A stretch of 64,000 nucleotides of DNA from an uncultured Omnitrophica bacterium (GCA_947085655.1 CAMTXH010000010.1:82015-146014); one strand, 5' to 3'. Shown: positions 20,305-44,827, numbered from the stretch's first letter. A program made the numbers and translations. Notes: a model not told the origin generated them from the letters alone.

Positions 20305-20963
20305 CTCCTTGGCCCCATCCCCACACAAATGGTCCACGGAAACGAGCTGATGTTCCGGATCTCTCTGAAATAAGGTTTGATCATTTTAATGAAAGCTGCC
20401 TGATTCCAGAATTGAACATGCTCCGGGTCCCGTCCCAACCGGGCGAGATGTTTTCCCCTGGCGAAATTCCCCAAACTAAATAGCGGTTCATTGGGAACGC
20501 TTACAATGACTGTATGGCGGCTCACCCGACACAGTTCTGTTAGAGCCCGTATGGGCTCCTTGAGGTGCTCCAAGATCTCAAGCGCCATGACCAGGTCGAA
20601 ACTTTGTGCGGCAAAATGGAGAGAAGTGACATTTCCCTCGGAAAATGAGACTCCCGGATTGAGTTCGCTTGCTATTGCCAGGGCTTCTGCGTTTCTATCC
20701 ACGCCCTCGAAACGGGCCTTGATGCCGTGACGGCGCAAATGAGAAATAACAAACCCTTCGCCACAGCCTATTTCTAAGACATCGTCACAATGAAGCATGG
20801 AGACTGTTTCAAGAATCTTGTCGAGAAACCGGCCTATTAAAAAACGGGCCAAACGGTTTTTTGTTAGATATTTATTGTAATTACTTGAGGAGTAGGTTGC
20901 TCGGTGACGAACCGTTTCAAAATATTTCACATTTTCCAGAACTTCCATTCCTTCAGACTCCAT
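20301..20963 (-). CDS. class I SAM-dependent methyltransferase
   Basis: VLEIGCGEGFV motif I, DLVMALEILEHL motif II/III region. Confidence 0.7.
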   Translation of the reverse strand: MESEGMEVLENVKYFETVRHRATYSSSNYNKYLTKNRLARFLIGRFLDKILETVSMLHCDDVLEIGCGEGFVISHLRRHGIKARFEGVDRNAEALAIASELNPGVSFSEGNVTSLHFAAQSFDLVMALEILEHLKEPIRALTELCRVSRHTVIVSVPNEPLFSLGNFARGKHLARLGRDPEHVQFWNQAAFIKMIKPYFREIRNISSFPWTICVGMGPRR

Positions 20964-29310: not shown

Positions 29311-29320
29311 AAACGTTCTC

Positions 29321-30619
29321 CTACCAAAGTCCCAGACGCGCCGCGAATGCCGACGCCTGGAGACGGATGGCATCTGAATTCACAAAGAGAAGTGACATCG
29401 CCCCGAGCCAGCCGCCCGAAAGAACCGACGGAACCCACTTCCGCGAGAAAAACGAAAAGAATCTCGCCAGCGCGACGGCACCGAAGAGAATCAAAACCGG
29501 TTCAAAGGGCAACCGGTACCGCGGCGTCCCTTGAAAAACAAGACTGACGACGTGAAGATAGAGGAGCGGAACATACAACACCCACAAGTCCTGAAAATGC
29601 CTGAGCGATGCCGCCATCCCCCACAGGATAAAAGGCAGAAGAAATCCGTAGGTCGGGTTAAACATCCCTCCCCCTAAAACCTCCCAGTCAAACGGCGACC
29701 AGAGCAAACCGATTTTTAACGCCTCAAGGCGGGGTATCCGGCCGGGGTTCTCACGGATAAACCGCCATCCCTCCCGAAACAGAAAACGGCTCCTGTCGAT
29801 TTCAGAGTCGAAATGAGCGTTGGCATAATGTGTCGTCTCATCATGTGTGATGAATCCGAGGAGTTTCCCTTCAGGCGGCCGATAAGAGGAATAAAAGGTA
29901 ACCCCTCCGTTTGTAGAGATCGGGGTCCATTGTCCGTATCGATGAAGATTCCGAAGCTCCCAGGGAAGGAGAACAAGATAGAAGGCCAAAAACATTCCCA
30001 AGGAAAGACCGAATCGTCTGTGCCACGACCACGAACGCCTTGTGAGGATTCCCCCCATGAGAAACACTGGAAAGAGGACGATGCTTGTTTTGGTTAGACT
30101 CGCCAATCCCAGACAAATCCCCAATACGCCCGATGTCCTCCAGCCATCTCCCTGATAGACCCGGAGAAGAAGATAGAGTGCTGTGATGAAGAGAAAGGTA
30201 AAAAGAGACTCCGACAGAACCATCGAAGAGACCTTAATCAATGAAAGGGAAAACACGCACAAAAGAAGCGACAAAAGCGCAAGCCGCGGTCCCAAAATCC
30301 TCTTTCCGATCAGATAGGTCAAGGCACAGGTTGCGGTTCCCAAGAACGCCTGAATGATCAGAACAGGAAACAGATTCCGTCCGAATACTCTGTATATGAG
30401 AGAGAGGAAGATCGGGTACAAGGGGGGATGGAAGAAATCGAGTTCCCTGAGATCTTCCCCGCCCGAAGCCAGCAACCAGCCGGTGGCATCGTACCAGGTC
30501 GCATCTCCCTGGAGGGTCTGGCCGGCATGCATGCCGGCGCTCCATAGCCGCAGAAAAAGTGCAAGGCCCAGCAGAAACATCACCCCCCACCCCTCCTTTT
30601 TCCGGAACAAGGTCTCCAT
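29321..30619 (-). CDS. GT-C glycosyltransferase, ArnT-like (PMT_2 family); paralogue of 23738..24988
   Basis: polytopic; QGDATWYDATGWLLASG first-loop motif; C-terminal GTPRYRLPFEP matches paralogue. Confidence 0.6.
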   Translation of the reverse strand: METLFRKKEGWGVMFLLGLALFLRLWSAGMHAGQTLQGDATWYDATGWLLASGGEDLRELDFFHPPLYPIFLSLIYRVFGRNLFPVLIIQAFLGTATCALTYLIGKRILGPRLALLSLLLCVFSLSLIKVSSMVLSESLFTFLFITALYLLLRVYQGDGWRTSGVLGICLGLASLTKTSIVLFPVFLMGGILTRRSWSWHRRFGLSLGMFLAFYLVLLPWELRNLHRYGQWTPISTNGGVTFYSSYRPPEGKLLGFITHDETTHYANAHFDSEIDRSRFLFREGWRFIRENPGRIPRLEALKIGLLWSPFDWEVLGGGMFNPTYGFLLPFILWGMAASLRHFQDLWVLYVPLLYLHVVSLVFQGTPRYRLPFEPVLILFGAVALARFFSFFSRKWVPSVLSGGWLGAMSLLFVNSDAIRLQASAFAARLGLW

Positions 30620-30622
30620 TTC

Positions 30623-31573
30623 TCACACCTTCTCGGCGAACACGATCATCTTGGTAAAAGGAACGATGTAATAGGTCTTGTCATAGAACCCCAAAAGGCG
30701 GCTTGCGCTCTGGAGAAATCTGGCCGTCCCCTTGTGATAGAACTCCCAGCGCCTCAGGATCTTGCCGACCTTGAAATGACGGCCATACTGATGCACCTTC
30801 AAGACACGGAAACCGGTCTTTTGAAGCATCAAGGTCAGAGTTTTCTCTGAGAACAAGTAAAGGTGCTCCTTGACCCGTCGCATATCTTCCCACCTGCCTC
30901 CGAGGAGTCGCGCCAGAAGACTCCCCGCATTCGGGGTGGCGATGGTCACAACACCGCCGGGTCTTAAAAGGGCATGGACCTTCTGAAGGGCCGAGAAAGG
31001 ATCGTGGAAGTGTTCAATGACATCCAAAAGAACTCCTGCATCGAATGAGATGGGCGGCAGAACCTGCTCCTCAAATGATCCCTGGACAACATCGAGCCCC
31101 AGCCTGTGTCTGGCGTAGCGGACGGCGGCCTCAGAGATCTCCATACCGGTCACTTCCCACCCATGCCGTCTTGCAACTTCGAGAAAATACCCCGGGCCAC
31201 ATCCGATATCGAAGAGGTGGCCGGGCGACGTCAAAACTTGCAACCGCTGGACGACCTTTTCAAAGGACCGCTCGATCTCCTGACGTTCAGAGATATATTC
31301 GGCATACCCATACATGTAACCGTCAAATTGATAGAACTTCGGATTATGAAAATATTCCGACTGGGAATAGATCTTTTCAACTTCCTCCCGGACGAGGCGT
31401 GGATTCACGTAGATCAACCCGCATTTTCGGCAGCGCACGATTTGGAAACCGTCGATGCGGTAAAGCCGTGTCGCATCCTCTGCACCGCAGAGGTTGCAGG
31501 GGACGATTTCCAGTCGTTGCTGGCCTTCTTTTGTCCGGAGCGCCTTTTCCTTTATCGTCGTTTCAGGCATCAT
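30623..31573 (-). CDS. class I SAM-dependent methyltransferase with N-terminal Cys4 zinc ribbon
   Basis: CNLCGAEDA...CRKCG ribbon; LFDIGCGPGYF motif I; LLDVIEHFHDP motif II. Confidence 0.7.
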   Translation of the reverse strand: MMPETTIKEKALRTKEGQQRLEIVPCNLCGAEDATRLYRIDGFQIVRCRKCGLIYVNPRLVREEVEKIYSQSEYFHNPKFYQFDGYMYGYAEYISERQEIERSFEKVVQRLQVLTSPGHLFDIGCGPGYFLEVARRHGWEVTGMEISEAAVRYARHRLGLDVVQGSFEEQVLPPISFDAGVLLDVIEHFHDPFSALQKVHALLRPGGVVTIATPNAGSLLARLLGGRWEDMRRVKEHLYLFSEKTLTLMLQKTGFRVLKVHQYGRHFKVGKILRRWEFYHKGTARFLQSASRLLGFYDKTYYIVPFTKMIVFAEKV

Positions 31574-32793
31574 GGTTTTGTCCCTACCGTTGCGGCCTCT
31601 TCCTCAAAAGTCTTCGCCTCCTTTAAGGAAGAGGGTTCCCATCGGTGCCTCTTTCCATTTCGCAATGTCTCATAGAGAGATTCCAAGCGGCGGGCGGCTT
31701 GAAGTGCAGAAAACTTTCTCTGCACATAAGACCGGCCCTCCTGGGCCATTCTTTGCAACTGATCGGGATGGGACAACATCATCTCGAGTTTGGCTTCTAA
31801 GGCATGGCTATCTCCCGGAGGAACCAGAAAGCCGGTCTGTCCGTCCTGTATCGCTTCCTGATTCGGACCGATATTGGTTGCAAGGACCGGCCGTCCGGAG
31901 GCCATCGCCTCCAAAAGGCAAAAAGGCATTCCCTCGCTCAGCGTCGGGAAGACAAAGCCGTCACACGCACTCAAAAGATTCTTGACATCAAGACGCCGTC
32001 CCAAAAAGGAGACGGCATTCTGTAATCCGAGGGACTGCACCAGATCTTCCAATGTCTTGCGAAAGGACCCCTCTCCGACGATCCAGAGCCGCACGTGGGG
32101 ATGGCGCCGGAAAACCCCTGCAAAGGCGCGAATCAAAAAAGGGTGGCCCTTATCCGGGTGGAGCTTCCCCACGGTCACAAACAGAAAGGCGTCCCCCCTC
32201 AACCCCCACGCAGCCCGATGTCGTCTCCGCTCCTCTTCGGGCATCGTCGAAAAGGCCTCTTCGCCGATCGCGTTATAGATGACAGAGATCTGCCCAGGAT
32301 CGACCCGGAGATGTCGCATGATGGAATCGCGCACCGTTTCTGAAACGGCAACAAAGTGTTGGCACCACCGCGCACTCCAACGGTCGAGCCATAAACGCTT
32401 CTGCGAATAGAGTGACAAGTGCCTGTTGTCATAAACCGTTGACTGGACTGTGGAGATCGCAAGGGGAGTCCTTGAAAATCGTCCCGCCAGTCGGCCGTAA
32501 AGATCCGCCCAGAAAAGCTGGGTGTGGAGGATGTGGGGACGGTATCGGCGAATCAACCGAACGAGGCCCGAAACAATACGGGCTCCGTCGGAAGGATGGG
32601 ATGCCGACATCCCCACCGTAGAAACCCCCAGACGCTCAAAATCCTTTTTCAGGTCATCCTCCTTTGTCAGAAAACAGACAACAGGCTCAAAACGGGACCG
32701 GTCTAAATTCTCCATGTCTATCAGGAGGCGCTTCTCGGCCCCCCCCAGTCCCAAACTTTCGATCAGATAGAAGATGCGACATCGATCAACCAT
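31570..32793 (-). CDS. GT4 (group 1) glycosyltransferase
   Basis: FVFPTLSEGMPFCLLEAMASGRPVLATNIGPNQEAIQDGQTGFLV EX7E motif. Confidence 0.8.
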   Translation of the reverse strand: MVDRCRIFYLIESLGLGGAEKRLLIDMENLDRSRFEPVVCFLTKEDDLKKDFERLGVSTVGMSASHPSDGARIVSGLVRLIRRYRPHILHTQLFWADLYGRLAGRFSRTPLAISTVQSTVYDNRHLSLYSQKRLWLDRWSARWCQHFVAVSETVRDSIMRHLRVDPGQISVIYNAIGEEAFSTMPEEERRRHRAAWGLRGDAFLFVTVGKLHPDKGHPFLIRAFAGVFRRHPHVRLWIVGEGSFRKTLEDLVQSLGLQNAVSFLGRRLDVKNLLSACDGFVFPTLSEGMPFCLLEAMASGRPVLATNIGPNQEAIQDGQTGFLVPPGDSHALEAKLEMMLSHPDQLQRMAQEGRSYVQRKFSALQAARRLESLYETLRNGKRHRWEPSSLKEAKTFEEEAATVGTKP

Positions 32794-33340
32794 ACGCTTT
32801 TTCGATCGCCCGCAGATAGCCCTTTTCCCACTTTTTTTGAGCCGTGAGGATCAGTCGGATCGTTTCCGCGACGGCACCCTCTCCGCCCTTCTTCCGTGTG
32901 ACGTACCGGGCGGCCTTTTTGACTTCCGGAACCGCGTCGCTGACCGCGACTGGAAAACCGACTCTTTGAAGAACGGGAAGATCCAGAAAATCATCCCCGA
33001 TATAAGCAACCTCCTCATCGCAGAGGTGGTGCTTTTTTTCGACCTCATCCAAAATTTTGAGTTTGTTCAGATTGTTCAGGTAAATGCCGTCCACCTTCAT
33101 TTTTTCCGCGCGCTGTTTGACCACCCTGGAATCCCGGCCCGAAACAAGAACCCGGAGCAGACCCGCTTCCTTCGCGGCCCAGCTCGCCGCACCGTCATGG
33201 ACGCAAAATTCCTTGATCTCATGGAGTCCTTCCCCGTTCAGGGAACCTGCCCAAATAATGCTCGGCTTCGCCAGGACCCCGTCGACATCGATCAGGAATA
33301 ACTTAATTTTTTTTAACCGTGCTCTCAATCCTTGCTTCAC
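32786..33340 (-). CDS. kdsC: 3-deoxy-D-manno-octulosonate 8-phosphate phosphatase (KdsC/YrbI HAD family)
   Basis: KLFLIDVDGVL HAD motif I, IGDDFLDLP motif IV; adjacent to kdsB. Confidence 0.7.
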   Translation of the reverse strand: MKQGLRARLKKIKLFLIDVDGVLAKPSIIWAGSLNGEGLHEIKEFCVHDGAASWAAKEAGLLRVLVSGRDSRVVKQRAEKMKVDGIYLNNLNKLKILDEVEKKHHLCDEEVAYIGDDFLDLPVLQRVGFPVAVSDAVPEVKKAARYVTRKKGGEGAVAETIRLILTAQKKWEKGYLRAIEKAYG

Positions 33341-34073
33341 GAGTCGTGTCCTCTGGTTTTAAGATCTTTCTGACTTCAAAAAGGTCGGAAAGGGTATCGA
33401 CGCTGATCGTCTTACGGCGTGTTTCGACGCCCTTGACCTTAATGCCGTTCTCGACCGCCCGGAGCAGTTCCACCCCTTCCACAAGTTCAAGAGGGGTCGG
33501 GGACATCGACGCAAACTCCAGAAGAAACTCCTTCCGGAAGGCATAAAGCCCTACCTGTTTATAAGCCGTGTAGGCCTGGCGTGTTTTGGGGTAAGGGATC
33601 GGGCTTCTTGAAAAGAAGAGGACATCACCTTTTGTGTCTATGACCGTCTTAACAACGGTGGTATCGATAAAGTCCGCGGGGTCTTCGATCGGAGACATCA
33701 AAGTTGAAACCAAGCAGCCGGGTTCTTTCAAAAGCGGCTGTGCGGCCTGTTCGAGCATCTCAGGATGGACGAGCGGCTCATCCCCTTGAACATTGAGAAT
33801 AATGTCGGCGTCGATATCCAAAACGGCCTCTGCAATCCGGTCGGTTCCGGTCTTGTGTTCGGGACTTGTCAAAATCACCTTGCCACCGAACGCCTCAACG
33901 GCTTTTTGGATTCTCTGATCGTCCGTCGCGACAAAGACATCCTGAATGCCCTTGGCGCGCCCTGCCCCCTTGAACACGTAGTAAATCATCGGTCTGCCAT
34001 GAATCTCTGCAAGCGGTTTCCCCTCAAAACGGGTGGACTGGTAACGTGCCGGAATAACGGCGACGATTTTCAT
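33303..34073 (-). CDS. kdsB: 3-deoxy-manno-octulosonate cytidylyltransferase (CMP-Kdo synthetase)
   Basis: MKIVAVIPARYQSTRFEGKPL...LNVQGDEPL characteristic of KdsB. Confidence 0.85.
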   Translation of the reverse strand: MKIVAVIPARYQSTRFEGKPLAEIHGRPMIYYVFKGAGRAKGIQDVFVATDDQRIQKAVEAFGGKVILTSPEHKTGTDRIAEAVLDIDADIILNVQGDEPLVHPEMLEQAAQPLLKEPGCLVSTLMSPIEDPADFIDTTVVKTVIDTKGDVLFFSRSPIPYPKTRQAYTAYKQVGLYAFRKEFLLEFASMSPTPLELVEGVELLRAVENGIKVKGVETRRKTISVDTLSDLFEVRKILKPEDTTREARIESTVKKN

Positions 34074-35419
34074 TGCAGTATCCTTTCAACCAACTCTTTA
34101 TGTCTGTCGAATGTCTCTTTCTGCCGGCCCACGATCTCACAGGTCCTCCCCCGGAGTCGTTCCATCAGGGATCGGTCTTCCAAAAGCATGGTGACGTTAC
34201 GGACAAGCTCCTCCGCGCTGCCGACCTGCAGGCCGGGCCAGCAATCGAGCAATTGCGCCAGGAACGCCTTGCGTAGATGGATATTCCTTCCAAAGAAAAA
34301 CGGCTTTTCGTGCAGCATCGGCTCCGCAACATTGTGACAAAGGCCTTTCCAATGGGTATCCTCCGTCTCGAGGCTGCTGCCCCCGATAAAGACAAACGTC
34401 GCGAGTCCGTACAGGTATCTCAACTCGCCGTAGGTGTCCAGCAGGATAATGCTGTCCGGTGCCAATCCTTCTTTTTGGATCTTACTTTTCCGAATCGACG
34501 CACATGAAAAATCGCGGAGCCGCCTTTCCATGTCATCCAAATGCTCAATCCAACGGGGTGCGATTAAAAGACGGAGCCGGGGAAATTTCTCCCTGAGTTT
34601 CCGGCAGGCCGAGGCGATGAGGGGAATTTCTTCCGTATGGAGACTGCCCACAACCCATAGGATCTCATCCGGGTGAAGGCCCAGTTCTTTCCGATAGGCG
34701 GCGGTCTGTTCGTCGGAAAGCCGGATGTCCTCCGCGGAAAACTTAAGGTCTCCGAGAACAAAGATACGCCCGGGTTCAACACCCAAACGTTTATATCCTT
34801 CCGCGTCCTCCTCCCCCTTAACGCCAATCCACTGCAGCGCTTCGTAAAAGCGGAGGGACATGGCCCGCTGCATATAACGATTCCCCTCCCAACCTTCCGG
34901 AAAAAAGCCGCTGAGGAGCGCTGTCGGGATTCCTTTCTGGTACGCCGTCTTCAAGCCGAGCGGAAACTTGGCGCTTTCCACCGTAAAAAGCGCTCTCGGC
35001 TTCAGCAGTCGGAACAGACGGCTCACCGGTGCGGGCAAATCCCACGGCGAATGCAAAACAAGATGAAAGAGTCCCTCCTCCTGCGCCTTCTGAAACGCGG
35101 ATTCGTCGCTGGTTGAGCAGACGAGAAGGTCGTCCGGAAAAGAGGCGTTCATCCACCGGCAGAGTGCGCGCATCTGGTAAAGTTCTCCCAAAGATTGGGC
35201 TTCAATCCAGATCGATCTTTTTCCGTTGAGTCTTTGGGCGTCCTCCCGGTTCAAAAATCCCCAACGGTTCCAGAAATAGTCGTGCCAATACCGGTCGCGG
35301 CTTAAAAGAATGCGACTGGTCCAGGTGATCGGCAGATAGGCATAGGCCTTCATGCGATACCCCAGGGGTGATGTAATCGTCAAATATCTCAGGTGTGAAA
35401 ACGAAAGTCTGTTATGCAT
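34070..35419 (-). CDS. waaA: 3-deoxy-D-manno-octulosonic acid transferase (WaaA/KdtA, GT30)
   Basis: IWIEAQSLGELYQMRAL (cf. WaaA IWIHAASVGE), GT-B C-terminal half; adjacent to kdsB/kdsC. Confidence 0.7.
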   Translation of the reverse strand: MHNRLSFSHLRYLTITSPLGYRMKAYAYLPITWTSRILLSRDRYWHDYFWNRWGFLNREDAQRLNGKRSIWIEAQSLGELYQMRALCRWMNASFPDDLLVCSTSDESAFQKAQEEGLFHLVLHSPWDLPAPVSRLFRLLKPRALFTVESAKFPLGLKTAYQKGIPTALLSGFFPEGWEGNRYMQRAMSLRFYEALQWIGVKGEEDAEGYKRLGVEPGRIFVLGDLKFSAEDIRLSDEQTAAYRKELGLHPDEILWVVGSLHTEEIPLIASACRKLREKFPRLRLLIAPRWIEHLDDMERRLRDFSCASIRKSKIQKEGLAPDSIILLDTYGELRYLYGLATFVFIGGSSLETEDTHWKGLCHNVAEPMLHEKPFFFGRNIHLRKAFLAQLLDCWPGLQVGSAEELVRNVTMLLEDRSLMERLRGRTCEIVGRQKETFDRHKELVERILQ

Positions 35420-35434: not shown

Positions 35435-36469
35435 TTAGATCCGGCCTATGTACTCAAAAATCGGATCATGCGGCATCTTTTCCGAAAAGAAAAGCCAGCG
35501 TCTCGGGTACGAATTGGGCCTCGTAAAAGCAGGGGAGATTCTGAAGTGGAGTCTCTTCTCCGGGTCCCAAACGGGATAATCCAATAGGGTAATGTCCGAA
35601 TCATAAAGCTGGGACGACTGGACGCGATTCACGGTGAAGAAGAACCTCGCCGTCTTAAAGACGGGGGACTCCATGTAATATTCGAACCACTGCCGCTTCA
35701 TCTCTCCGAAGGAGGTAAAATTCGTCACAAGATCCGACGATTCCCGGCCCAACCGGTCATAACAGGGAATCGGGACAAGGATAAAATCGTACTGCCGAAT
35801 GAAATCTCTTGTGATTTCCTTTTGGTCCAAAAATTCTTTGACCCCCGCGATCCGCGCTTCGGGAAGATAACTTCCCAGAAAGTAGTAGGCCAGAATCAAC
35901 TGCGCCGAGAAATCCACAAGGATGTGATGGGATTGGGGCCATTCCTGCTTGACCAGCCCTGAGAAAACGCCGTAACTGCTCCCGATATCCAGAGTGATAA
36001 AATCATCTGCAAGATGTTTTCCGAGTATTTCCTTGAGAAGACCGGTGAGATAGACATGTTTGAACCACCGGTGGGTGTAGCGATAACCTTGATATTGAAA
36101 GACGCTGGGATTCCCGACGTCGGGGCAAGGGTGTCTTTTTAAAAGGTCGGTATATTTTGCCTCTTCAAGGACCTTAAAACACTCAATCAGATGCCTCCGG
36201 TCGCCGCGTCTGCCGCCGCCCAAAAAATTCCTCGGGTCCAAGGCATGCATGTCATAATTAGGCGTATCCGGCACAAAGATATGCAGCCGCCTGAAATTGG
36301 AAAGGGCCTCTTTGTTCAGCAACCCATCCCGGTGGATGAGGCGATCCGGTTCGCTCTCCAGGCGCTCGCGCCATGTCTCACAAAGGTCTTCCCCGTAGCG
36401 GGCTGCGCCATCCAACGCCCGGTGGCTTTCCAGCTCGGCCTGAATCTGATTGAGGAGGTCGTTTTTCAT
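35435..36469 (-). CDS. methyltransferase-fold protein (possible divergent CmoB-like/FkbM-like transferase), translationally coupled to cmoA-like gene
   Basis: ATGA overlap with cmoA-like stop at 36466-36469; ITLDIGSSYGVF resembles SAM motif I (CmoB ILDVGCGSGY) at equivalent position; otherwise no canonical CmoB blocks. Confidence 0.4.
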   Translation of the reverse strand: MKNDLLNQIQAELESHRALDGAARYGEDLCETWRERLESEPDRLIHRDGLLNKEALSNFRRLHIFVPDTPNYDMHALDPRNFLGGGRRGDRRHLIECFKVLEEAKYTDLLKRHPCPDVGNPSVFQYQGYRYTHRWFKHVYLTGLLKEILGKHLADDFITLDIGSSYGVFSGLVKQEWPQSHHILVDFSAQLILAYYFLGSYLPEARIAGVKEFLDQKEITRDFIRQYDFILVPIPCYDRLGRESSDLVTNFTSFGEMKRQWFEYYMESPVFKTARFFFTVNRVQSSQLYDSDITLLDYPVWDPEKRLHFRISPAFTRPNSYPRRWLFFSEKMPHDPIFEYIGRI

Positions 36470-37239
36470 ACCTCGTCCAACTCAACTCTTGTATTTTTCT
36501 TGAGGCACAAAAAACCGGCAAAATTGTACCACTGAAAAAAGGTATCGACCGCCTGAAACCCGTTTCGCTTGAATAATTGAACATTTTCCTCGATCCGGTA
36601 GGGAACCAGGACATTTTCCAGGGCTTCGCGTTTGCGCCCGATTTCCGCGTCCGAATAGCCGTTTCTCCTTTTGAAGTCATAATACAGTTCCACAAAAAGC
36701 CGGTTCGTATCGGTGTTGTTTGTCAAAATTTTCTCCAAAACCAGCAAAATCCCGTTATCGACCAGAGCGTGGTGAATCGAACGGATCAGACGGTCGCGCA
36801 TGAGCGGCCTGATAAACTGAAGGGTCCAGCACATCGTCACGACACTGGCATTTTGCATCGGGACCTCCCCGTTCAGATCGGCATAGGCGATCTCAACGAC
36901 GCCGTCCAAGCCGATTCGGCTCACCTTTTCTCTCGCCTTTGAGATCATCGGTTCCGAATTGTCATAACCGATCAGGTGTTTTCCCGTTTTCTTCATGTCG
37001 CGGCCGATATTCGTCAAGGTCGTCCCCGTCGAACACCCCAGGTCGTAGATATTCGTCCCCTTGATATAGAACTTCTTGGTGAGTTCCTTAACGATGGCTT
37101 GCTGCTCCAGATAAAAAGGAACGCTCCGGACAAGCATGTCGTCAAAGACCGCCGCTACGTCGGGCCCAAACTCAAAATCACTGACCCGGGATGCTGTTTT
37201 CGCAAAGATCGTGTCTGCTTTCATCGTCTCTGTTTTCAT
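36466..37239 (-). CDS. cmoA: carboxy-S-adenosyl-L-methionine synthase homologue (CmoA family)
   Basis: end-to-end match to E. coli CmoA as recalled: DTIFAKTASRVSDFEFGPDVAAVFDDMLVRSVPFY, YDLGCSTG, LQFI, HHDFKRxNGYS with conserved Arg, FQWYNFAGF; ORF 36466..37257 trimmed to MKAD... Confidence 0.7.
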   Translation of the reverse strand: MKTETMKADTIFAKTASRVSDFEFGPDVAAVFDDMLVRSVPFYLEQQAIVKELTKKFYIKGTNIYDLGCSTGTTLTNIGRDMKKTGKHLIGYDNSEPMISKAREKVSRIGLDGVVEIAYADLNGEVPMQNASVVTMCWTLQFIRPLMRDRLIRSIHHALVDNGILLVLEKILTNNTDTNRLFVELYYDFKRRNGYSDAEIGRKREALENVLVPYRIEENVQLFKRNGFQAVDTFFQWYNFAGFLCLKKNTRVELDEV

Positions 37240-37240
37240 C

Positions 37241-38548
37241 TCATCTCTCCTTTGCATTATGAACCGTTAAACTCTGGATCAGCGCAGTGACCCGCTCATG
37301 TGTTTTACCATCCAAATAGTGGCAGATCCGTTCCTTTAAGGCAGCCCTCTCTTGGCGCTCCAAAGAGGGGTCTTTGAGATACTCATTCACCCTCTGGATC
37401 AACTCAAATTCATCCCTCGCGATCCGGCTCGCCCCTGTCTCGCGGACAGGACGAAAGTGGTACTCCCAGTGTCTTTTGAGAATGTGTGTTTTGAAGGCCC
37501 CCGCATTTTGGGGATCGAAGGCGACATTGACAACGGGCGTGTCCAAAAGGGCTGCCTCGATCGTCACCGTTGAAGCAACGTTGACGAGGACATCGCTGTG
37601 TTTGATCAGATTGGCGACGTGCCTCGATTCCGCCAGGTCAGGATCCCAACCAAGTGTTGGTGAAATACGGCCCTTCAGATCGAGGGTCACATCGGGACAC
37701 GCCGGTAACTCCCACTTCGTCTCCTTCTGGAACATGATCGGATGGAACCGGCAAACCAGTTGCGACGGTTCGGCCAGTTTACCCTCACGCATCGCCCGGC
37801 GCAGGTGTTCGACCACATGAAGGCAATCTCCGCGCAGATTGCGCAGATAATACCCTGCAATCGTAATGAGTTTCTTCCGGGGATCCAATCCAAGCCGCTT
37901 AAAGAAGGCGTCTCTCGACTCAAATGTCTGTTCCTCGTAATAATGGTCAAACTGGAGGGGGCCGACGACCCATATCCGATTTTCCGGAAAGTGCCAAGTC
38001 CGAACGACTTCCTCTTTCATTAATGGATTCCAGACGGCCAGATAACCGGGTCTTACCCGCAGGGTGTCTTTGATCGGACTGAAGTTGTCCCAACTGTGCA
38101 CGACACAGAGCACCGGTATCTTCCAATTCCTTGCCTCCCGGATCAGGGGGAGATCCTGTGTTGTGTGGAGCCCGCATCCCGCCGTAACGAGCAGGGCGGG
38201 TTGATGCTTTTGAAACATTTCCCCATATTGTATCGGCTCCGAACGCGTCGCCAGCCAATGGTGCATCTTCATCGCCAAAAGGTAAGGCGTACGGGAGCCC
38301 CTGAGTCTCCTCCCGCATTTCCATAAAAGAGCCCTGCAGAATCCCTCCTCTTTGTCGGCAGCACCCATCGGCTCAAACAGGACCTGTCCATTTAAGGCGA
38401 ATTCCTTAACGAAAGAAGGGTCACGAGCGGCCGTCGAGACGATAACCGCTCGCATGTCCCGCCTGGATAAAATCCCTGCCAAGAGGCGGCTCCGTAACAG
38501 GGATCTTGCGTAACGTCCGATCGGAATCGAAAAGAAAATGGTCTTCAT
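37241..38548 (-). CDS. GT-B fold transferase, possibly CDP-alcohol/glycerophosphotransferase (TagB/TagF Glyphos_transf-like) or capsule phosphotransferase
   Basis: FHP...then LIKHSDVLVNVASTVTIEAALLDTPVVNV pattern resembling TagF HP ... SDxLITDYSS...KPII; low certainty. Confidence 0.35.
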   Translation of the reverse strand: MKTIFFSIPIGRYARSLLRSRLLAGILSRRDMRAVIVSTAARDPSFVKEFALNGQVLFEPMGAADKEEGFCRALLWKCGRRLRGSRTPYLLAMKMHHWLATRSEPIQYGEMFQKHQPALLVTAGCGLHTTQDLPLIREARNWKIPVLCVVHSWDNFSPIKDTLRVRPGYLAVWNPLMKEEVVRTWHFPENRIWVVGPLQFDHYYEEQTFESRDAFFKRLGLDPRKKLITIAGYYLRNLRGDCLHVVEHLRRAMREGKLAEPSQLVCRFHPIMFQKETKWELPACPDVTLDLKGRISPTLGWDPDLAESRHVANLIKHSDVLVNVASTVTIEAALLDTPVVNVAFDPQNAGAFKTHILKRHWEYHFRPVRETGASRIARDEFELIQRVNEYLKDPSLERQERAALKERICHYLDGKTHERVTALIQSLTVHNAKER

Positions 38549-39474
38549 TTTCTCATGGACCGAAGTGCCACGGAGACCTGATCCGCCAGAAACCCGAAAA
38601 GAATCACCGAGAAGGAGGCGATCAAGACAATGATGGAGGATCCGCGGATTCCTCCGGAAACGATAAAATTCGTCAAACCCAGGAATATGCCGGCGGCACC
38701 CAAGAAAAGCCCCGCCGGCAAAAAGATGCGGAGAGGACTGAACAGCATGACCATCCTCGTGATAATTAGGAGAAAACGCAACCCCTCCCGGAAAGGCCGA
38801 AGCTTGCTTTTGCCCAGGCGCCTCTTTCCGATGGAATCCAAAGGGACATATTTCACAAAGTAGCCCGCCTTCAAAAATGAAAGGGTCGCCGTCGTCGGAT
38901 ACGAGTAAGTATTTGGGAAAAGATGAAGAAACTCCAGGGCCTTCTGTCGCTTGATCGCCCTGAAACCCGAGGTGAGATCCAGAATTTTCGCATCAGAGAG
39001 ATACTCGGCGACTTTAATCAACATCTTGTTCCCCGCCGTACGGAAACGGGAAAGTTCTGCGCGCTTCGTCCGTGCCCCAATCACCATGTCGTATTCACCG
39101 ATGTCTTTGATCAACTCCGGAACCGCCTCCGGAGGATGCTGGCCGTCGCCGTCCATCAACACCACAATATCCCCCTTGGCCCGTTGAATTCCCGTCTTGA
39201 CGGCCGCTCCATTCCCCAAATTGTAGGGGTGACGGACGACGTCCGCACCCGCGGCCTTTGCCCGTGCCGCCGTTTGATCCTCTGATCCGTCGTCGATGAC
39301 CAGCACCTGGTCGGCACAGCCGAGGACGAGGATCCGCTTGACCACCTCGGCAATCGCATCCTCCTCGTTGTAACAGGGAAGGAGGATGCTGATTTCTTTC
39401 TCTTGAGGGGTTTTAGTCCCCTCGGACGGTGAAGTCGACGACTTTTGATCCAGCAATGGCGATTTTTCGAACAT
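38545..39474 (-). CDS. GT2 polyprenyl-phosphate sugar transferase (GtrB/ArnC-like with C-terminal TM helices)
   Basis: ISILLPCYNEE...LVIDDGSEDQT...LMDGDGQHPP; C-terminal hydrophobic helices; 62-nt overlap with upstream ORF suggests alternative internal start. Confidence 0.75.
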   Translation of the reverse strand: MFEKSPLLDQKSSTSPSEGTKTPQEKEISILLPCYNEEDAIAEVVKRILVLGCADQVLVIDDGSEDQTAARAKAAGADVVRHPYNLGNGAAVKTGIQRAKGDIVVLMDGDGQHPPEAVPELIKDIGEYDMVIGARTKRAELSRFRTAGNKMLIKVAEYLSDAKILDLTSGFRAIKRQKALEFLHLFPNTYSYPTTATLSFLKAGYFVKYVPLDSIGKRRLGKSKLRPFREGLRFLLIITRMVMLFSPLRIFLPAGLFLGAAGIFLGLTNFIVSGGIRGSSIIVLIASFSVILFGFLADQVSVALRSMRK

Positions 39475-40915
39475 CTGTCCAGCTCCTTATTCCGAAAAGG
39501 CGCTTTCCGACATAGGAAGGTCTCAGGTAGAAGCGCCGGTAGGCGTCCCGTATATATTTGGCAAGGTCCTCTTTCTTCACAGACGTATAAAGCTCGTTAA
39601 ACAACCCCTCCGTATGCAGGACGGTCAGATCGCTCTGCGAGCCGTCTTTTATCTCCGGATACTTGGCCTGAACTTCGGCAAACAGTGGGGTTCCCGGATA
39701 GGGGGTGCAGATCCCGAAGGTGGCCGTGGTCGGATCGATCTCCATCGTAAATTCGATCGTCCGCTGAATGCTCTCATCCGTATCGTCCGGCATTCCCAGC
39801 ATGATGTGGGCATGGGTGTCAATCCCGACCTCATGCGCCCATTTGAAGGTCTCCACGGTTTGCTCCACCTTAAAACCCTTTTTCACGCGGTCCAGGACAT
39901 TCTGATTTCCCGATTCGACGCCGAACTTCATGACGGAGCATCCTGCCCGCTTCATCCATTCCATCTGTTCTTTGTCCACCAGCCCCACCTTCGCATTGCA
40001 AATCCAGGGAAATTGATAGCCCCGCTCAATGACCCCCTTGCAGAACTCGATGTTGCGCCTTTTATGAACGGTCCATATCTCATCCCGGTAGTAGATCTCC
40101 CGGTAACCGTTCGAGAGAAAGTATTCAACCTCATCGAGCATCCGTTTCGCACTCTGGTATCTGAAATTGGGACCATGGAAAAAAGGCGCCGTACAGAAGG
40201 TGCATTTCGAAGGGCAACCCCTCGTCGTGACCGCCGTAATATAAGGGTACTGAATGACAAGGGGATTAAAATACCCGACATCCTTCGGAAGGAGCGAAAC
40301 ATCGACCATCGGATATTCATCAAGATTATCGATGAAATTCGGCTGAGGCGTTAAGACGGGCTCGCCGTTCTCCTGGAAGCCGATGCCCTTCACCGCCCTC
40401 CACTCCCCATTTCTCCCATGCAGAGCCCGGACAAGTTCTACAACGATTCCCTCGGGCTCATTGAGGACGATGATGTCAACGCCCTCCTTGCTCAAGGCAT
40501 ACTTTGGCATAAACGTGCCGTGGGACCCGAAAAGAATCGTCTTAAGGCGCGGGTTTTCAAGTTTAAACTGACGCAGCGTTTCCGCATCCTCGTTAAAAGT
40601 CATCGTTGCGGCATTCGCAACAATGAGATCGTAATGGTCCATTTTTCCGCGCAAGTCATCCGGGTGAATCCCTTCCGCCTGGGCATCGATCAGCGTCACA
40701 TCGTGACCGTCCTTCTTCAGAACGCTTGCGACGGACAAAAGGAAGTAGGGCGGAACCGTTCCCCCGCCGATCCGCTTCCCCTTGCACCAGCAACCGTAGA
40801 GGACATCCCGTACGATGTTCTTTGTCACGTAACTTGCCGGATTCAATGCAAGAATTCTCATGCCACTCCCCCTTCCTTTCTTAAGCGGACGATTCTCATG
40901 ACACCTTCTGCGCAA
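39413..40915 (-). CDS. B12-binding (class B) radical SAM enzyme
   Basis: N-terminal cobalamin-binding-like domain (MRILALNPASY..., DLIVANAATM), radical SAM CxxxCxxC as GCPSKCTFC; probable real start at MRILALN (about 40861). Confidence 0.75.
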   Translation of the reverse strand: MRRRCHENRPLKKGRGSGMRILALNPASYVTKNIVRDVLYGCWCKGKRIGGGTVPPYFLLSVASVLKKDGHDVTLIDAQAEGIHPDDLRGKMDHYDLIVANAATMTFNEDAETLRQFKLENPRLKTILFGSHGTFMPKYALSKEGVDIIVLNEPEGIVVELVRALHGRNGEWRAVKGIGFQENGEPVLTPQPNFIDNLDEYPMVDVSLLPKDVGYFNPLVIQYPYITAVTTRGCPSKCTFCTAPFFHGPNFRYQSAKRMLDEVEYFLSNGYREIYYRDEIWTVHKRRNIEFCKGVIERGYQFPWICNAKVGLVDKEQMEWMKRAGCSVMKFGVESGNQNVLDRVKKGFKVEQTVETFKWAHEVGIDTHAHIMLGMPDDTDESIQRTIEFTMEIDPTTATFGICTPYPGTPLFAEVQAKYPEIKDGSQSDLTVLHTEGLFNELYTSVKKEDLAKYIRDAYRRFYLRPSYVGKRLFGIRSWTDVRKIAIAGSKVVDFTVRGD

Positions 40916-41819
40916 CGACCCATTGATTCACTTTTTTCCCGGAAAACGACTGCGCAAGATAAATCAGGGCGATTCCGAAACGGACCCACCCGGACACTCC
41001 GATCCGCCCAACCGGATAGTCTTTCGGAATGCAGGCAGTCCGCTCGAAGCCGTTCTCGGTCAAAAGACGGTGCAGCGTTCGCTCTGTGAAGTAATGAAGA
41101 TGATAAGAAGGATAAAGTCTCGTGATTGGAAATTGGATTGTCCCGAAACTCAACCGATAGGACCAATGTCCGATCTGATAGAGAAGATTGTCGATGTTCA
41201 GGGTCTGGGTCATCAAGAGGCCCCCCGGTTTCAGAATTCTCCTGATCTCCACCAGACACGCCAATGGGTCCCGCAGGTGTTCCAAAACGTCCCAAAGCGT
41301 CACCACGTCAAAATGATTTTCCGGAAATGCGGCGTTCTGAAGCGTGCCCTGCGTAATGGAGAGCTCATATTGTTCCCTCGCACGCTGAACCGCGTAGGAG
41401 GAGATTTCGACGCCGCTGGGTCGCCATCCTCTTTTTTGCGCCATGTTCAAAAAGACCCCCATCGCGCAGCCCACATCAAGGAGAGCCCCTTTCGCGGGAG
41501 CGTGCGTCTCCAGAATCTCCAGCGCCTCCTCATAATCTTTGAGGTGCTCTTCACCCGCAATATCCCCCTCCTGATGCTTAAAATAATCCACCTCCCAATA
41601 CGTTTTGTCCTCGTAGAGATGTTTGAGCTCCTCTTCATCCGGCATCGGAAAGAGATACCGATGGCCGCACCGCGGACACGAAACGACGGAGTGGCTACGG
41701 GTCGGAAAGGGACGGATGCTCGGCAAGCGATAGCATGTCCGGTACCGCCCTTCCTGACAAAGGGGACAACTCCCTTTATTTGTTAAGTTCTGAGGGGGTA
41801 AAGTATCTTGAAGAAGCAA
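40896..41819 (-). CDS. class I SAM-dependent methyltransferase with N-terminal zinc ribbon; paralogue of 30623..31573
   Basis: TTG start verified at 41817-41819; CPLCQ...CPRCG ribbon; LLDVGCAMGVF motif I; DVVTLWDVLEHLRDP motif II. Confidence 0.7.
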   Translation of the reverse strand: MLLQDTLPPQNLTNKGSCPLCQEGRYRTCYRLPSIRPFPTRSHSVVSCPRCGHRYLFPMPDEEELKHLYEDKTYWEVDYFKHQEGDIAGEEHLKDYEEALEILETHAPAKGALLDVGCAMGVFLNMAQKRGWRPSGVEISSYAVQRAREQYELSITQGTLQNAAFPENHFDVVTLWDVLEHLRDPLACLVEIRRILKPGGLLMTQTLNIDNLLYQIGHWSYRLSFGTIQFPITRLYPSYHLHYFTERTLHRLLTENGFERTACIPKDYPVGRIGVSGWVRFGIALIYLAQSFSGKKVNQWVVAQKVS

Positions 41820-41948: not shown

Positions 41949-42923
41949 TCATTCTTTTGACTCGTAAGATTCAACCGCTGCACCCACCGCATGCCTTTCG
42001 GAAAGCGCCCAAAGGACCGTTTCCAGATAATCCGTTGTCAGCGGCATAAAATAACGGTCGTCTAACCAAACAGGGTTTAACAAAGTTCCCTCCTCGAGTC
42101 CACGGCATATCCTTTCGAAAACGGGACTTCCGAAAAACGCAACGCCGTACGAATAAAGGAACTGGGTCTTCCGGCTCATCCGGTGATGGTCATAATGTCC
42201 CTTTTCGTCGATTCTCTCCTCCAAAAATCCAAGGGCGCGCTTGAGCGATTCCAAAAGAACGGGATCTTTTGTCCGTTTCCAATAGTGCGCCAGACAACCG
42301 ACAATCAGGGAAAGATAGCCGACGTCAGCCCCTCCGTACTCGGGAAAATACCCTGACGACTCTTGAGAAGAAAGCAGCCTGGACAATTTCTCCTCGGAGG
42401 CACGCAGATAGGGGGTGTTGCTTGTCAAATGGTAAAGATTTAAAAGCGCGCAAGCCGCTGCCGCCATCTGATTGGAAACGTCCGGATTGTTATGGCGCAT
42501 CAGCCACTTTCCCGTTTTTTCAAGACGCTCGCCATCGCTCCTCCGGAGGAGAAGCATCGCTTCCGTGACGGCCCAGCAGGTAAAAGCGGTGGCGCAAAAC
42601 CCCCGTTCGTTCGGGTAGGCCTCATCCACGCTTCCGTCCCGGTGGCGACGCGAAATCCAAAATTCGATCGCCGCCTCTGCCCACTGCTTCACCTGTCCGT
42701 TCTGGTAATAAATGTTCCCGTCAAAATTCCCCTGATAGAGAAGCGCCAAGAGCCAGCACGCTTCCTGATACCGCGTATTCGGAAAGTCGATTGACTTGTA
42801 GTGCCAGTACCCGCGGTCGAAACATCCGAATGTCTCAGAAGAGGGATCCCGGTCGCCCAATCCCAATACGCGGGGCACCTGGCTTAAGACAATTTCATGG
42901 ATTCTCTCGAGAGACTCTTTCAT
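41949..42923 (-). CDS. uncharacterised soluble protein, paralogue of 17903..19585
   Basis: ETFGCFDRGYWHYKSIDFPNTRYQEACWLLALLY and EAYPNERGFCATAFTCWAVTEA blocks shared with the 560-aa paralogue. Confidence 0.4.
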   Translation of the reverse strand: MKESLERIHEIVLSQVPRVLGLGDRDPSSETFGCFDRGYWHYKSIDFPNTRYQEACWLLALLYQGNFDGNIYYQNGQVKQWAEAAIEFWISRRHRDGSVDEAYPNERGFCATAFTCWAVTEAMLLLRRSDGERLEKTGKWLMRHNNPDVSNQMAAAACALLNLYHLTSNTPYLRASEEKLSRLLSSQESSGYFPEYGGADVGYLSLIVGCLAHYWKRTKDPVLLESLKRALGFLEERIDEKGHYDHHRMSRKTQFLYSYGVAFFGSPVFERICRGLEEGTLLNPVWLDDRYFMPLTTDYLETVLWALSERHAVGAAVESYESKE

Positions 42924-44827
42924 GCGGTAACCGCCTCCCGGGGACAGGGAACCTTTTGATCCACAAAAACATCGAGCCAGATCTCAAGAATCAGTAGCGC
43001 CATCAGCTGTTTGTGATAAATGAGCGGTGAGGAATCCGCTTTCTCCAAAAGAGAGCGGAGCGTTTCCCACTCAAACCATCCTCTCCGCTTGATCCGTTCA
43101 ACGGAGAGATAGTCGCTACAGAGCTTTCTGAAAACGCTCTGAAATCTTCCCTCGAGCGGCATAAAGAAGGCCTGCTTCCTGCGTCTGGTCGTTTCGGGCG
43201 GAAGGATTCCTTTGAAGGCGCGCCGGAGCAGGATCTTGTTGACCCCCCCATGAATCTTCAAATGAAACGGAACGCGCCCCATCAATTCAACAATGCGATG
43301 ATCCAGATAAGGAACGCGCCCCTCCACGGAGTGCGCCATGGTCAGCTTATCCTGTTTAAAAAGGATATTGTCCGGAAGCCAAGAGGTCAGTTCCTGGCGC
43401 AGAAGCCAATTCGGGATGTCGTCTGTTTCGTTATCCATCAAAACATCTTCTGAATCTTTTTCACCTGTAAGAACCTCTTTGAATTGACCGGTATAAAGTC
43501 GATCCTTTTCCGCACCCGTAAAAAGAGAGACGACATGCAGATAGTTTTGCTTCGTATCTCCCAAGTGCCTTAGGAAAAAGGCAAGCCGTTTACGACCCTC
43601 AGTTCCCATCGAAGCGGGGTATTGGAAAAAGCGATCGATCAGAGACACGGGCATTCCTTCGACGAAGCGTCCCAAAGCGCTCCCGATGCGGGGAGGAATC
43701 CGGGATGCCCGGAGAAGTGTGTCCTGATGGACATATCCCCCCAACAATTCATCCGCGCCTTCGCCGGTGAGAACAACTTTGACATGACGGTGGGCGATTT
43801 GAGACAAAAGATAGGTCGGGACAACGATGGCATCCCCGACCGGCTCATCCAGATGCCACACGATCTTCGGAAGGAGAAAAAAGTCGTCGGGCTTGACCTC
43901 AACTTCGTGGTGGTCCGTCGCATACAGATCAGCGATGTGCCTGGCGCTTGCTGTTTCATCCTGTGATGTCCCGAATCCGACGGAGAAAGTCTTTCGGGGC
44001 GCGTGGTCCAGCGCTGCGACCAGGGAAACCACGGCACTCGAATCGAGTCCCCCGCTTAAGAAAGCCCCGATGGGGACGTCGCCCATGAGCTGAAGCCGGA
44101 CGGAATCCTTCAAGAGGTTATAAAACTCCTCCACAAACGCCTCCTCCGACATCTTTCGGTCTTCCTTCATTTCAAAATGCCAGTAAGGGCGCAGGGTCTC
44201 CTTCCCTTCCTGAAACGCCAGAAAATGCGCAGGGGGAAGCTTCCGGATGCCGGCAAAAAAGGTCCTGTTCCCGGGCACATACCGAAACGTCAGGTAATCG
44301 TCAATCGATCTAAAATCGAGTGTGCGATTGACCGCCTCGCACTGAAGGAGCGCTTTGAGTTCCGACGCAAAGAGAAAATCCCCGTTGACCCGCGTATAAT
44401 AGAGCGGTTTAATTCCCAGCCGGTCACGCGCCAAGAAAAACCGGCTCTGTGTTGAGTCCCATATCGCGAAAGCAAACATTCCGTTCAACCGGTCCAGACA
44501 GGATGTCCCGTATTCTTCGTAGGCATGAACAACGACTTCGCTGTCGGTCTTCGTGACAAAGCGATGGCCTTTTTGGGTCAGGAGTTCCCGTAGCTCGAGG
44601 TGGTTATAGATTTCGCCGTTAAAGACAAGTACCAAAGAACGGTCTTCATTAAAGAGGGGCTGACTTCCTGTTTGAAGATCCACGATGCTCAACCGGACAT
44701 TGCCTACGCCGGTTCCCTCCCTGTAGAAAAATCCTGATTCGTCAGGTCCGCGGTGGGCCATCGTTCCCGCCATGACCTTCAGCAGTTCCTCCGGGTAATC
44801 TCCCCTAAAACCGAAAATGCCGCACAT
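42920..44827 (-). CDS. asparagine synthase (glutamine-hydrolysing) family amidotransferase, second copy
   Basis: internal start MCGIFGF (ATG 44825-44827 overlapping upstream stop as TGATG); SGGLDSS PP-loop; long ORF 42920..45040 is an N-terminal over-extension. Confidence 0.8.
   Translation of the reverse strand: MCGIFGFRGDYPEELLKVMAGTMAHRGPDESGFFYREGTGVGNVRLSIVDLQTGSQPLFNEDRSLVLVFNGEIYNHLELRELLTQKGHRFVTKTDSEVVVHAYEEYGTSCLDRLNGMFAFAIWDSTQSRFFLARDRLGIKPLYYTRVNGDFLFASELKALLQCEAVNRTLDFRSIDDYLTFRYVPGNRTFFAGIRKLPPAHFLAFQEGKETLRPYWHFEMKEDRKMSEEAFVEEFYNLLKDSVRLQLMGDVPIGAFLSGGLDSSAVVSLVAALDHAPRKTFSVGFGTSQDETASARHIADLYATDHHEVEVKPDDFFLLPKIVWHLDEPVGDAIVVPTYLLSQIAHRHVKVVLTGEGADELLGGYVHQDTLLRASRIPPRIGSALGRFVEGMPVSLIDRFFQYPASMGTEGRKRLAFFLRHLGDTKQNYLHVVSLFTGAEKDRLYTGQFKEVLTGEKDSEDVLMDNETDDIPNWLLRQELTSWLPDNILFKQDKLTMAHSVEGRVPYLDHRIVELMGRVPFHLKIHGGVNKILLRRAFKGILPPETTRRRKQAFFMPLEGRFQSVFRKLCSDYLSVERIKRRGWFEWETLRSLLEKADSSPLIYHKQLMALLILEIWLDVFVDQKVPCPREAVTA

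Follow-up and report, generated by a model that had tools for sequence, protein, structure and literature searches.

A CmoA-family gene and a putative sugar O-methyltransferase gene paired in an Omnitrophica surface-glycan cluster: a proposed carboxymethylation cassette

A 64,000-nucleotide stretch of DNA from an uncultured Omnitrophica bacterium (GCA_947085655.1, CAMTXH010000010.1:82015-146014), given as one strand with coordinates relative to its first letter and called the window below, contains two adjoining genes that may together serve carboxymethylation. The first encodes a homologue of CmoA, the carboxy-S-adenosylmethionine (carboxy-SAM, Cx-SAM) synthase, and the second encodes a protein with a class I methyltransferase fold, referred to here as the partner. 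Reading of the window for open reading frames (ORFs) found both on the minus strand, as are all the genes of the window named below. The cmoA homologue is at 36466..37239 (257 aa), within a longest ORF that extends to 37257 (263 aa). The ATG at 37239 is likely to be the true start because a Shine-Dalgarno sequence, AAGGAG (37247..37252, minus strand), is present 7 nt 5' of it, within the 3' end of the upstream TagB-like gene, and because the NCBI gene call for an identical contig (GCA_964374045.1, CAYJWX010000003.1) uses the same start. Both agree with the start given in the original prediction, which was made by a model from the sequence alone. The stop codon of cmoA overlaps the start of the partner gene (35435..36469; 344 aa) in the sequence ATGA (36466..36469, minus strand), an overlap that had been noted and is present, and which predicts that the two genes are translationally coupled.

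Is the first of these proteins a genuine CmoA? It matches the CmoA model TIGR00740 with 232 bits, against a cutoff of 193.3, over model positions 2–239 of 239, which bears out the claim that it aligns with CmoA along its whole length. The match to the enterobacterial model NF011995 is 157 bits, below the stricter cutoff of 285 for that model. A search of PDB sequences gave end-to-end matches to 1im8 (YecO; 8e-48) and 4gek (E. coli CmoA; 6e-43), and over its full length the protein shares 34% identity with E. coli CmoA. In E. coli CmoA the cofactor is contacted by Y39, D62, G64, S66, D89, N90, D117, N132, and F137, and Arg199, within SQKR199SMLENV, forms a salt bridge to the carboxylate of carboxy-SAM (Byrne et al., PMC3663124). 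Alignment of the two proteins shows that ten of eleven listed residues are kept in the window CmoA (Y39, D62, G64, S66, D89, N90, D117, F137, E164, and R199). The original prediction was right that the carboxylate-binding Arg is present, but placed it in the FKRxNGYS block, which is the wrong Arg; the true equivalent of Arg199 is in GRKREALENV. One of the blocks that it quoted, HHDFKRRNGYS, reads YYDFKRRNGYS in the window sequence. From the family membership and the cofactor contacts we infer that the window protein is a genuine CmoA-family carboxy-SAM synthase, with this activity predicted.

The partner matches the TIGR04371 family, 'putative sugar O-methyltransferase' of the NanM type, with 93.8 bits (cutoff 44) over residues 116–281. 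The match spans model positions 111–273 of 273, and the N-terminal 115 residues of the partner are outside it. Motif I is ITLDIGSSYG at residues 158–167, as had been described. An AlphaFold model (predicted local distance difference test score, pLDDT, 91) shows the core of a class I methyltransferase to which no solved structure is closely related, and a search of PDB sequences with the partner gave no match. The original prediction had likened this protein to CmoB, the transferase of the E. coli CmoA/CmoB system, and that likeness did not hold. The CmoB models (TIGR00452, PF08003) are absent from the NCBIfam and Pfam matches of the partner, a BLASTP comparison with E. coli CmoB yields E=6.9, and the top structural matches do not include CmoB. 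The partner also does not have the features that define CmoB membership, which include an N-terminal domain of ~100 residues carrying Lys91. The possibility of a divergent CmoB was therefore ruled out, and, as judged from the sequence and the predicted fold, no kinship with CmoB is demonstrable beyond the common methyltransferase fold. Neither of the two outcomes that had been named as fatal to the original prediction was found: the partner turned out not to be CmoB, and the cofactor-binding residues are conserved in the CmoA-like protein.

The pairing of these two genes is not particular to the window. A partner-profile search of one genome per GTDB species identified 38 loci, which were read for up to 10 kb on each side, with linkage called by tblastn and ORF mapping. 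A same-strand CmoA-family gene is present in 31 of the 38, from at least 10 phyla. It is directly adjacent to the partner gene in 28 loci, upstream in 18 and downstream in 10, and is 1.1–3.5 kb away in three more. The pair is found in Dehalococcoidia, Nitrospirae, Omnitrophota, Planctomycetes, Myxococcota, Peribacteria, and Rhizobiaceae, and also in Hoeflea, Flavimaribacter, Polynucleobacter, Bacteriovoracaceae, Pelagibacteraceae, Bacteroidota, and Actinomycetota. Cultured carriers are Hoeflea sp. CAU 1731, Flavimaribacter sediminis WL0058, Polynucleobacter bastaniensis, and Sediminibacterium roseum SYL130. When all of the neighbouring ORFs in the 38 loci were clustered, CmoA was the sole family broadly conserved with the partner (30 loci), followed by a KdsB/NeuA-like cytidylyltransferase (14 loci), radical SAM enzymes (10), an MsbA-like exporter (8), and NeuB (7). 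A KdsB/NeuA-like cytidylyltransferase or a NeuB homologue is present within 10 kb in 22 of the 38 loci, and AsnB-type ligases are near the pair in six. Neither the window nor any of the 38 loci has a match to E. coli CmoB (tblastn, E<=1e-5). The cmoA and cmoB genes of E. coli (b1870/b1871) overlap each other, and CmoA-CmoB is reported mainly from gamma-, epsilon-, and some delta-proteobacteria (PMC6063277).

A variant arrangement was seen in a marine contig (ERZ27292760; L125 4181–9056), where an AsnB-type ligase gene (with a 4-nt overlap), a partner homologue, a flavin mononucleotide (FMN)-dependent 2-hydroxyacid dehydrogenase gene (FMN_dh), and a divergent CmoA-like gene occur in that order. 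The dehydrogenase gene is wedged between the partner and CmoA-like genes, and the partner homologue has an N-terminal membrane segment.

On either side of the pair are the genes that had been described there. Directly upstream of cmoA is a gene for a TagB/TagF-like (Glyphos_transf, BFO_1060-like) glycosyl or glycerophosphate transferase (37241..38548), followed by one for a GT2 polyprenyl-phosphate-sugar-synthase-like glycosyltransferase (38545..39474), both assigned through family profile matches. On the other side of the pair is a gene for a divergent WaaA-like transferase of 3-deoxy-D-manno-oct-2-ulosonic acid (Kdo; 34070..35419; PF04413, 84 bits). The 4-nt overlaps reported at these junctions are present between the GT2 and TagB-like genes and between cmoA and the partner gene, but the TagB-like gene and cmoA are 1 nt apart and the partner and WaaA-like genes do not overlap. 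Pfam matches further identify a KdsB-like cytidine monophosphate (CMP)-ulosonic acid synthetase (CTP_transf_3; 33303..34073), which has homologues in 11 of the 38 loci, a KdsC-like phosphatase (Hydrolase_3; 32786..33340), a second CMP-sugar cytidylyltransferase (CTP_transf_3; 52617..53381), an AsnB-type glutamine amidotransferase/adenylating ligase (GATase_7 and Asn_synthase; 42920..45040), and a second AsnB-type ligase (27367..29373). A NeuB-family nonulosonic acid (NulO) synthase gene (54749..55618; PF03102, 273 bits) is in the same unidirectional cluster. From ~0.5 to 62 kb the window is a single unidirectional array of ~50 genes, which also includes a MurJ-like flippase, several PMT_2/ArnT-like transferases, a B12-binding radical SAM enzyme, and more methyltransferases. 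No tRNA genes were found in the window. By these predicted functions, the cmoA/partner pair is embedded in a ~60-kb surface-glycan biosynthesis cluster with ulosonic-acid (Kdo/NulO) genes.

Some other features of the cluster were observed. The WaaA-like protein is below every equivalog cutoff for lipid IV(A) Kdo transferases (best NCBIfam match 151 bits, cutoff 438). As it is so far below these cutoffs and is encoded in a polysaccharide cluster rather than among lipid A genes, the sugar that it transfers may be Kdo or a related ulosonic acid, with an acceptor other than lipid A. The gene for the B12-binding radical SAM enzyme (39413..40915), which is HpnJ/BchE-like with 236 bits, below cutoff, is two genes upstream of cmoA. 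Radical SAM genes recur near partner-family genes (10 of 38 loci), and B12-radical-SAM genes also adjoin TIGR04371-like methyltransferase genes that are not linked to CmoA (L127 4278–5843, L128 11415–12866), a pattern suggestive of C-methylation, or of some other radical reaction, on the same sugar. The cmoA region is flanked on both sides by genes for two paralogous methyltransferases (30623..31573 and 40896..41819; 29% mutual identity), in which an N-terminal four-Cys zinc-ribbon is fused to Methyltransf_23; these are not co-conserved with CmoA. A GT2-methyltransferase fusion (46502..48019) and a nitroreductase-family gene (19591..20337) are also within the glycan cluster, as are large ORFs with no Pfam match (16545..17906, 17903..19585, 41949..42923, 44827..46545, and 49576..50763).

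Close relatives of the window CmoA are abundant in other contexts. At least 7956 database proteins match it at E<=1e-30, and the best of these, which are 58–67% identical and include archaeal entries, are named 'CmoA' or 'tRNA (cmo5U34)-methyltransferase'. Three contexts of close relatives were read, two of which are glycan clusters with CmoA followed by another methyltransferase. The third is from a Thermoproteota archaeon metagenome-assembled genome (GCA_042566045.1; L044 656–7454), where a CmoA that is 59% identical to that of the window has an FkbM-type methyltransferase alongside, together with a sulfate-activation set of ATP sulfurylase, adenosine phosphosulfate kinase, DHH phosphoesterase, and a phosphodiesterase/sulfatase-like protein. 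This locus points to a possible use of Cx-SAM in archaea, where CmoB is not expected. A metagenome scan gave 80 loci (L045–L124) with CmoAs 45–63% identical to the window CmoA, and CmoB was near none of the 80. The partner family is present in two of these loci. Immediately downstream of CmoA in 16 is a methyltransferase of ~250 aa, Methyltransf_23-type, like that of locus L042, and immediately upstream in 21 is a TIGR04325-like methyltransferase; a convergent PaaK/F390-synthetase-like ligase is present in 10, and a non-ribosomal peptide synthetase (NRPS) with an internal methyltransferase domain in five. Examples of these other pairings are L086 5128–5997, L112 659–1435, L106 1061–5662, and L123 650–1306. 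Glycosyltransferase, PMT_2, and flippase genes are found in the close-relative contexts, and no homologues of these alternative partners were found in the window. Being paired with various methyltransferase-fold enzymes, this CmoA clade seems to be a mobile cofactor-supply module, mostly in glycan contexts. The TIGR04325-like, Methyltransf_23-type, and NRPS methyltransferases are candidate carboxymethyltransferase families, and the PaaK/F390-like ligases are candidate carboxyl-derivatising enzymes.

The original prediction held that no use of carboxy-SAM outside of tRNA had been described, which is outdated. Cx-SAM is used by TglE/TglF in the synthesis of 3-thiaglutamate and by MccS/MccB in that of a Bacillus microcin C-like antibiotic (PMC10491745), and phage CmoA/CmoX use it to generate 5-carboxymethylcytosine in DNA (PMC12783734). 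TglF is a homologue of CmoB, and MccB's C-terminal domain has an unrelated methyltransferase fold (PMC10491745). In every characterised non-tRNA case a CmoA homologue is found beside a dedicated carboxymethyltransferase, which is sometimes of an unrelated methyltransferase fold, as with MccB's C-terminal domain and CmoX. The window pair has this organisation, a CmoA homologue encoded beside a protein of methyltransferase fold, and the linkage recurs in other genomes (31 of 38 species, 28 of them with direct adjacency). In the literature searched (open-access PMC and bioRxiv only) we found no described sugar carboxymethyltransferase, no CmoA or Cx-SAM in glycan or polysaccharide synthesis, no carboxymethylated nonulosonic acids, and no characterisation of this TIGR04371-type subfamily. 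A glycan use of carboxy-SAM appears to be undescribed.

How might the partner distinguish Cx-SAM from SAM? A partner-profile search of 1.84 billion representatives gave 2699 members at E<=1e-3, of which 100 were at E<=1e-30; more distant members of the family were picked and their loci read. Every aligned member of the CmoA-linked family has Arg at position 134, as do P0294, P0301, and P0324. In P0375, P0378, P0379, P0381, P0382, and P0383 (L126–L131) the residue is Asn, Ser, or Cys, most often Asn, and in other distant family members it is Asn or Glu. The available DNA around those six relatives contains no CmoA-like gene, and four of the six are in NeuB/cytidylyltransferase (NulO) clusters. 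Linkage to CmoA was found for 32 of 39 Arg-type members versus 0 of 6 others (Fisher's exact p=2e-4). Motif I, GSSYG versus GGGYG, was also considered as a marker of Cx-SAM use, and was ruled out by P0294 (27% identical), which has GGGYG yet has a CmoA-like gene of the divergent group 2, described below, two genes away. In the phage enzyme CmoX, Arg350 is in the place of Asn304 of SAM-dependent M.HhaI and contacts the carboxylate of Cx-SAM, comparable to N374K in engineered M.MpeI (PMC12783734), while CmoB uses Lys91, Tyr200, and Arg315, of which Lys91 is essential (PMC4482062). The pattern at position 134 resembles the CmoX rule. Arg134 is a candidate selector of the Cx-SAM carboxylate, a lead rather than proof.

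The window pair can be compared with each of the known systems. Like E. coli CmoA/CmoB, it has a genuine CmoA with Arg199 and a synthase gene that overlaps the downstream transferase gene; unlike it, the transferase is not CmoB and the context is glycan assembly, not translation. The phage CmoA/CmoX(/CmoY) system of S-B43 is similar in having a CmoA homologue beside a recruited methyltransferase of an unrelated family. It is similar too in the replacement of Asn by Arg, which in CmoX binds the Cx-SAM carboxylate and in the window, as Arg134, would have that role by analogy, and in AsnS-like ligases able to amidate the new carboxyl, these being CmoY in the phage and AsnB-type in the window. It differs in that CmoX is a homologue of C5-methyltransferases with DNA cytosine C5 as its acceptor, whereas the window has a TIGR04371-type O-methyltransferase homologue in a glycan cluster. 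MccS/MccB and TglE/TglF are natural-product cassettes that likewise have a CmoA homologue supplying Cx-SAM to a dedicated carboxymethyltransferase, and MccB's C-terminal domain, like the window partner, is unrelated to CmoB. However, they modify a peptidyl-cytidylate and a peptide thiol, and neither system has a carbohydrate acceptor. The TIGR04371 relatives without CmoA (P0381/L127, P0382/L128, and P0383/L129) resemble the partner in their fold, in the motifs D/E-I-G-x-x-Y-G and N-x-x-S-x-x-E-M, and in their NulO/CMP-sugar neighbourhood, but their motif I is the canonical GGGYG, and in place of Arg134 they have Asn, Ser, or Cys. With no CmoA, with GGGYG, and with no Arg134, these are presumably true SAM-dependent methyltransferases. 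What we propose as new here is the family of the transferase and the class of its substrate, while the logic of cofactor supply is the one already known.

The explanation that we favour, and think probably correct, is that the pair is a two-gene carboxymethylation cassette in a surface-glycan cluster, in which CmoA makes Cx-SAM and the partner transfers the carboxymethyl group to a sugar hydroxyl. The CmoA homologue would convert SAM and prephenate to Cx-SAM, as suggested by its family membership and conserved cofactor contacts. The partner, a proposed carboxy-SAM-dependent O-carboxymethyltransferase, is probably soluble, judging from the annotation of its relatives as soluble sugar O-methyltransferases. 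It would take Cx-SAM instead of SAM, with Arg134 the candidate residue for selecting the extra carboxylate, and its transfer of the carboxymethyl group to a sugar hydroxyl would generate an O-carboxymethyl (glycolate ether) group. This second step is suggested by the translational coupling, the conserved gene pairing, and the lack of CmoB. As both the window and 22 of the 38 loci carry Kdo/NulO genes, our best guess is that the acceptor, or its neighbourhood, is an ulosonic-acid-containing unit; the gene neighbourhood points, less firmly, to a Kdo-type or nonulosonic-acid-type sugar, or a neighbouring residue, as the likeliest acceptor. An activated nucleotide sugar or a lipid-linked intermediate at the cytoplasmic face would fit with the annotation of the partner's relatives. 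More speculatively, an AsnB-type ligase of the cluster may then amidate the carboxymethyl group, by analogy with CmoY, which provides a precedent for amidation on phage DNA (PMC12783734). Since AsnB-type ligases are present in only six of the 38 loci, amidation would be optional at best and not part of the core. The central idea of the original prediction, that the pair carboxymethylates a sugar or lipid acceptor, is retained because of the pairing in 31 of 38 species without CmoB nearby, while its novelty claim, the analogy with CmoB, and the Arg that it named are set aside.

Several points weigh against the cassette. Carboxymethyl transfer to a glycan is something that we infer from gene linkage. 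A naturally occurring O-carboxymethyl sugar was not found in the literature searched, and the product may be a different one. We know of no O-carboxymethyl sugar from bacterial glycans. In the window CmoA, N132 of the E. coli enzyme, which contacts the methionine moiety, is replaced by Cys. No CmoA is within reach in seven of the 38 partner loci, of which two or three are truncated by contig ends; in L005 and L025 the contig edge is right after the partner gene. The correlation of Arg134 with CmoA linkage is confounded by phylogeny, through shared ancestry. The negative result for cmoB covers the window and the related loci only.

A further difficulty is that the partner-linked CmoAs fall into two groups. 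Group 1 comprises those of the window, L004, L006–L013, and L038, which are 47–64% identical to the window CmoA (38% for L038), keep Arg199, and are above the TIGR00740 cutoff, except for L038 (169 bits). Group 2 comprises the remaining ~20 loci, approximately two thirds of the linked CmoAs, including those of all of the cultured strains. These are 25–31% identical to E. coli CmoA and to the window CmoA; CmoA is their only or best NCBIfam match, over the full length, but with 73–163 bits they are below the TIGR00740 cutoff, and they are without Arg at position 199, although Lys198 is kept. Being below the cutoff and without Arg199, they are less certain to be Cx-SAM synthases. Does the loss of Arg199 mean a loss of function? 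Cyanophages S-CRM01 (L132 2992–4829) and S-B05 (L133 3022–5644) have a CmoA homologue beside a CmoX-type DNA cytosine methyltransferase, with an AsnS-like CmoY also present in S-B05. Their CmoAs share ~29% identity with the E. coli enzyme; position 199 is Glu, and Lys198 is retained. The CmoA of Synechococcus phage S-B43, to which they are likened by type and which is outside of the alignment, is an active Cx-SAM synthase (PMC12783734). The absence of Arg199 was therefore not accepted as proof of non-function. As Lys198 is invariant in all of the CmoA-family sequences aligned and the cyanophage proteins have Glu at 199, the carboxylate contact in divergent CmoAs may differ from that in the E. 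coli structure. Orthologous partners are found with CmoAs of either kind, an argument for the two groups giving the same service.

These points lend some weight to the alternative that both proteins are ordinary SAM-dependent methyltransferases acting on the same glycan, generating for example a di-O-methyl sugar, with the CmoA-like protein re-purposed and no carboxy-SAM made. The curated name of the partner's family is 'putative sugar O-methyltransferase', and many of the partner-linked CmoAs are those just described, below the cutoff and without Arg199. O-methyl groups are well known on ulosonic acids and on other sugars, whereas O-carboxymethyl groups, to our knowledge, are not. We nevertheless consider this alternative unlikely. 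In the window CmoA, which is above the equivalog cutoff, both Arg199 and Glu164 are retained. A lid covers the buried active site of CmoA and leaves no space for a macromolecule or other bulky acceptor, and the enzyme does not methylate (PMC3663124, PMC10491745). That orthologous partners pair interchangeably with canonical-type and divergent-type CmoAs argues for one function, and the partner relatives in similar NulO clusters that are not linked to CmoA differ at position 134.

Alternatively, carboxy-SAM may be made but used by another enzyme, such as the two zinc-ribbon Methyltransf_23 proteins, the GT2-methyltransferase fusion, or the B12-radical-SAM enzyme, or the partner may act on something other than a sugar, such as a lipid head group, amine, thiol, or protein. 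There are at least four other methyltransferase domains in the cluster, the window CmoA has close relatives that are paired with methyltransferases of several unrelated families, and the sugar specificity of TIGR04371 is itself only 'putative'. Yet only the partner family co-varies with CmoA (31 of 38 loci) while the other methyltransferases of the window do not recur, it is the partner that is translationally coupled to cmoA, and the neighbourhoods are dominated by sugar-nucleotide and glycosyltransferase genes, so that this too seems improbable. That this is simply a housekeeping tRNA cmo5U cmoA caught inside a glycan cluster, with cmoB elsewhere in the genome and the partner a plain O-methyltransferase, is in keeping with the database names of close homologues, 'tRNA (cmo5U34)-methyltransferase' or 'CmoA', but is very unlikely given the linkage to the partner family in 31 of 38 species from many phyla and in both gene orders, the absence of CmoB beside all 80 close CmoA relatives when the E. 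coli cmoA and cmoB genes overlap, and taxa (Nitrospirae, Omnitrophota, Planctomycetes, alphaproteobacteria, SAR11, and archaea) that are outside of the reported CmoA-CmoB range (PMC6063277).

If the pair is a carboxymethylation cassette, then a broader and more tentative picture, which we would not yet put at even odds, is that Cx-SAM is a general alkyl donor for the tailoring of surface glycans and secondary metabolites in bacteria and perhaps archaea. The CmoA clade would have been combined with at least four unrelated methyltransferase families (TIGR04371-type, TIGR04325-like, Methyltransf_23, and NRPS domains). Its TIGR04371-type branch would add O-carboxymethyl groups to Kdo/nonulosonic-acid glycans in SAR11, Polynucleobacter, Rhizobiaceae, Nitrospirae, and Omnitrophota, with Arg134 as the carboxylate selector and AsnB-like ligases sometimes amidating the product. 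Methyltransferases have already been engineered to accept Cx-SAM (PMC7496830), and a natural O-carboxymethylating enzyme, if this is one, would be of use to glyco-engineers and biocatalysis groups. The partner would represent a fourth structural family of natural carboxymethyltransferases, and thousands of environmental 'tRNA (cmo5U34)-methyltransferase/CmoA' genes would have been mis-assigned to translation. Among the modifications of bacterial surface sugars there would be a new one, an ether-linked carboxymethyl group that is negatively charged and derivatisable, and prephenate metabolism would be linked to cell-envelope chemistry in very abundant aquatic bacteria.

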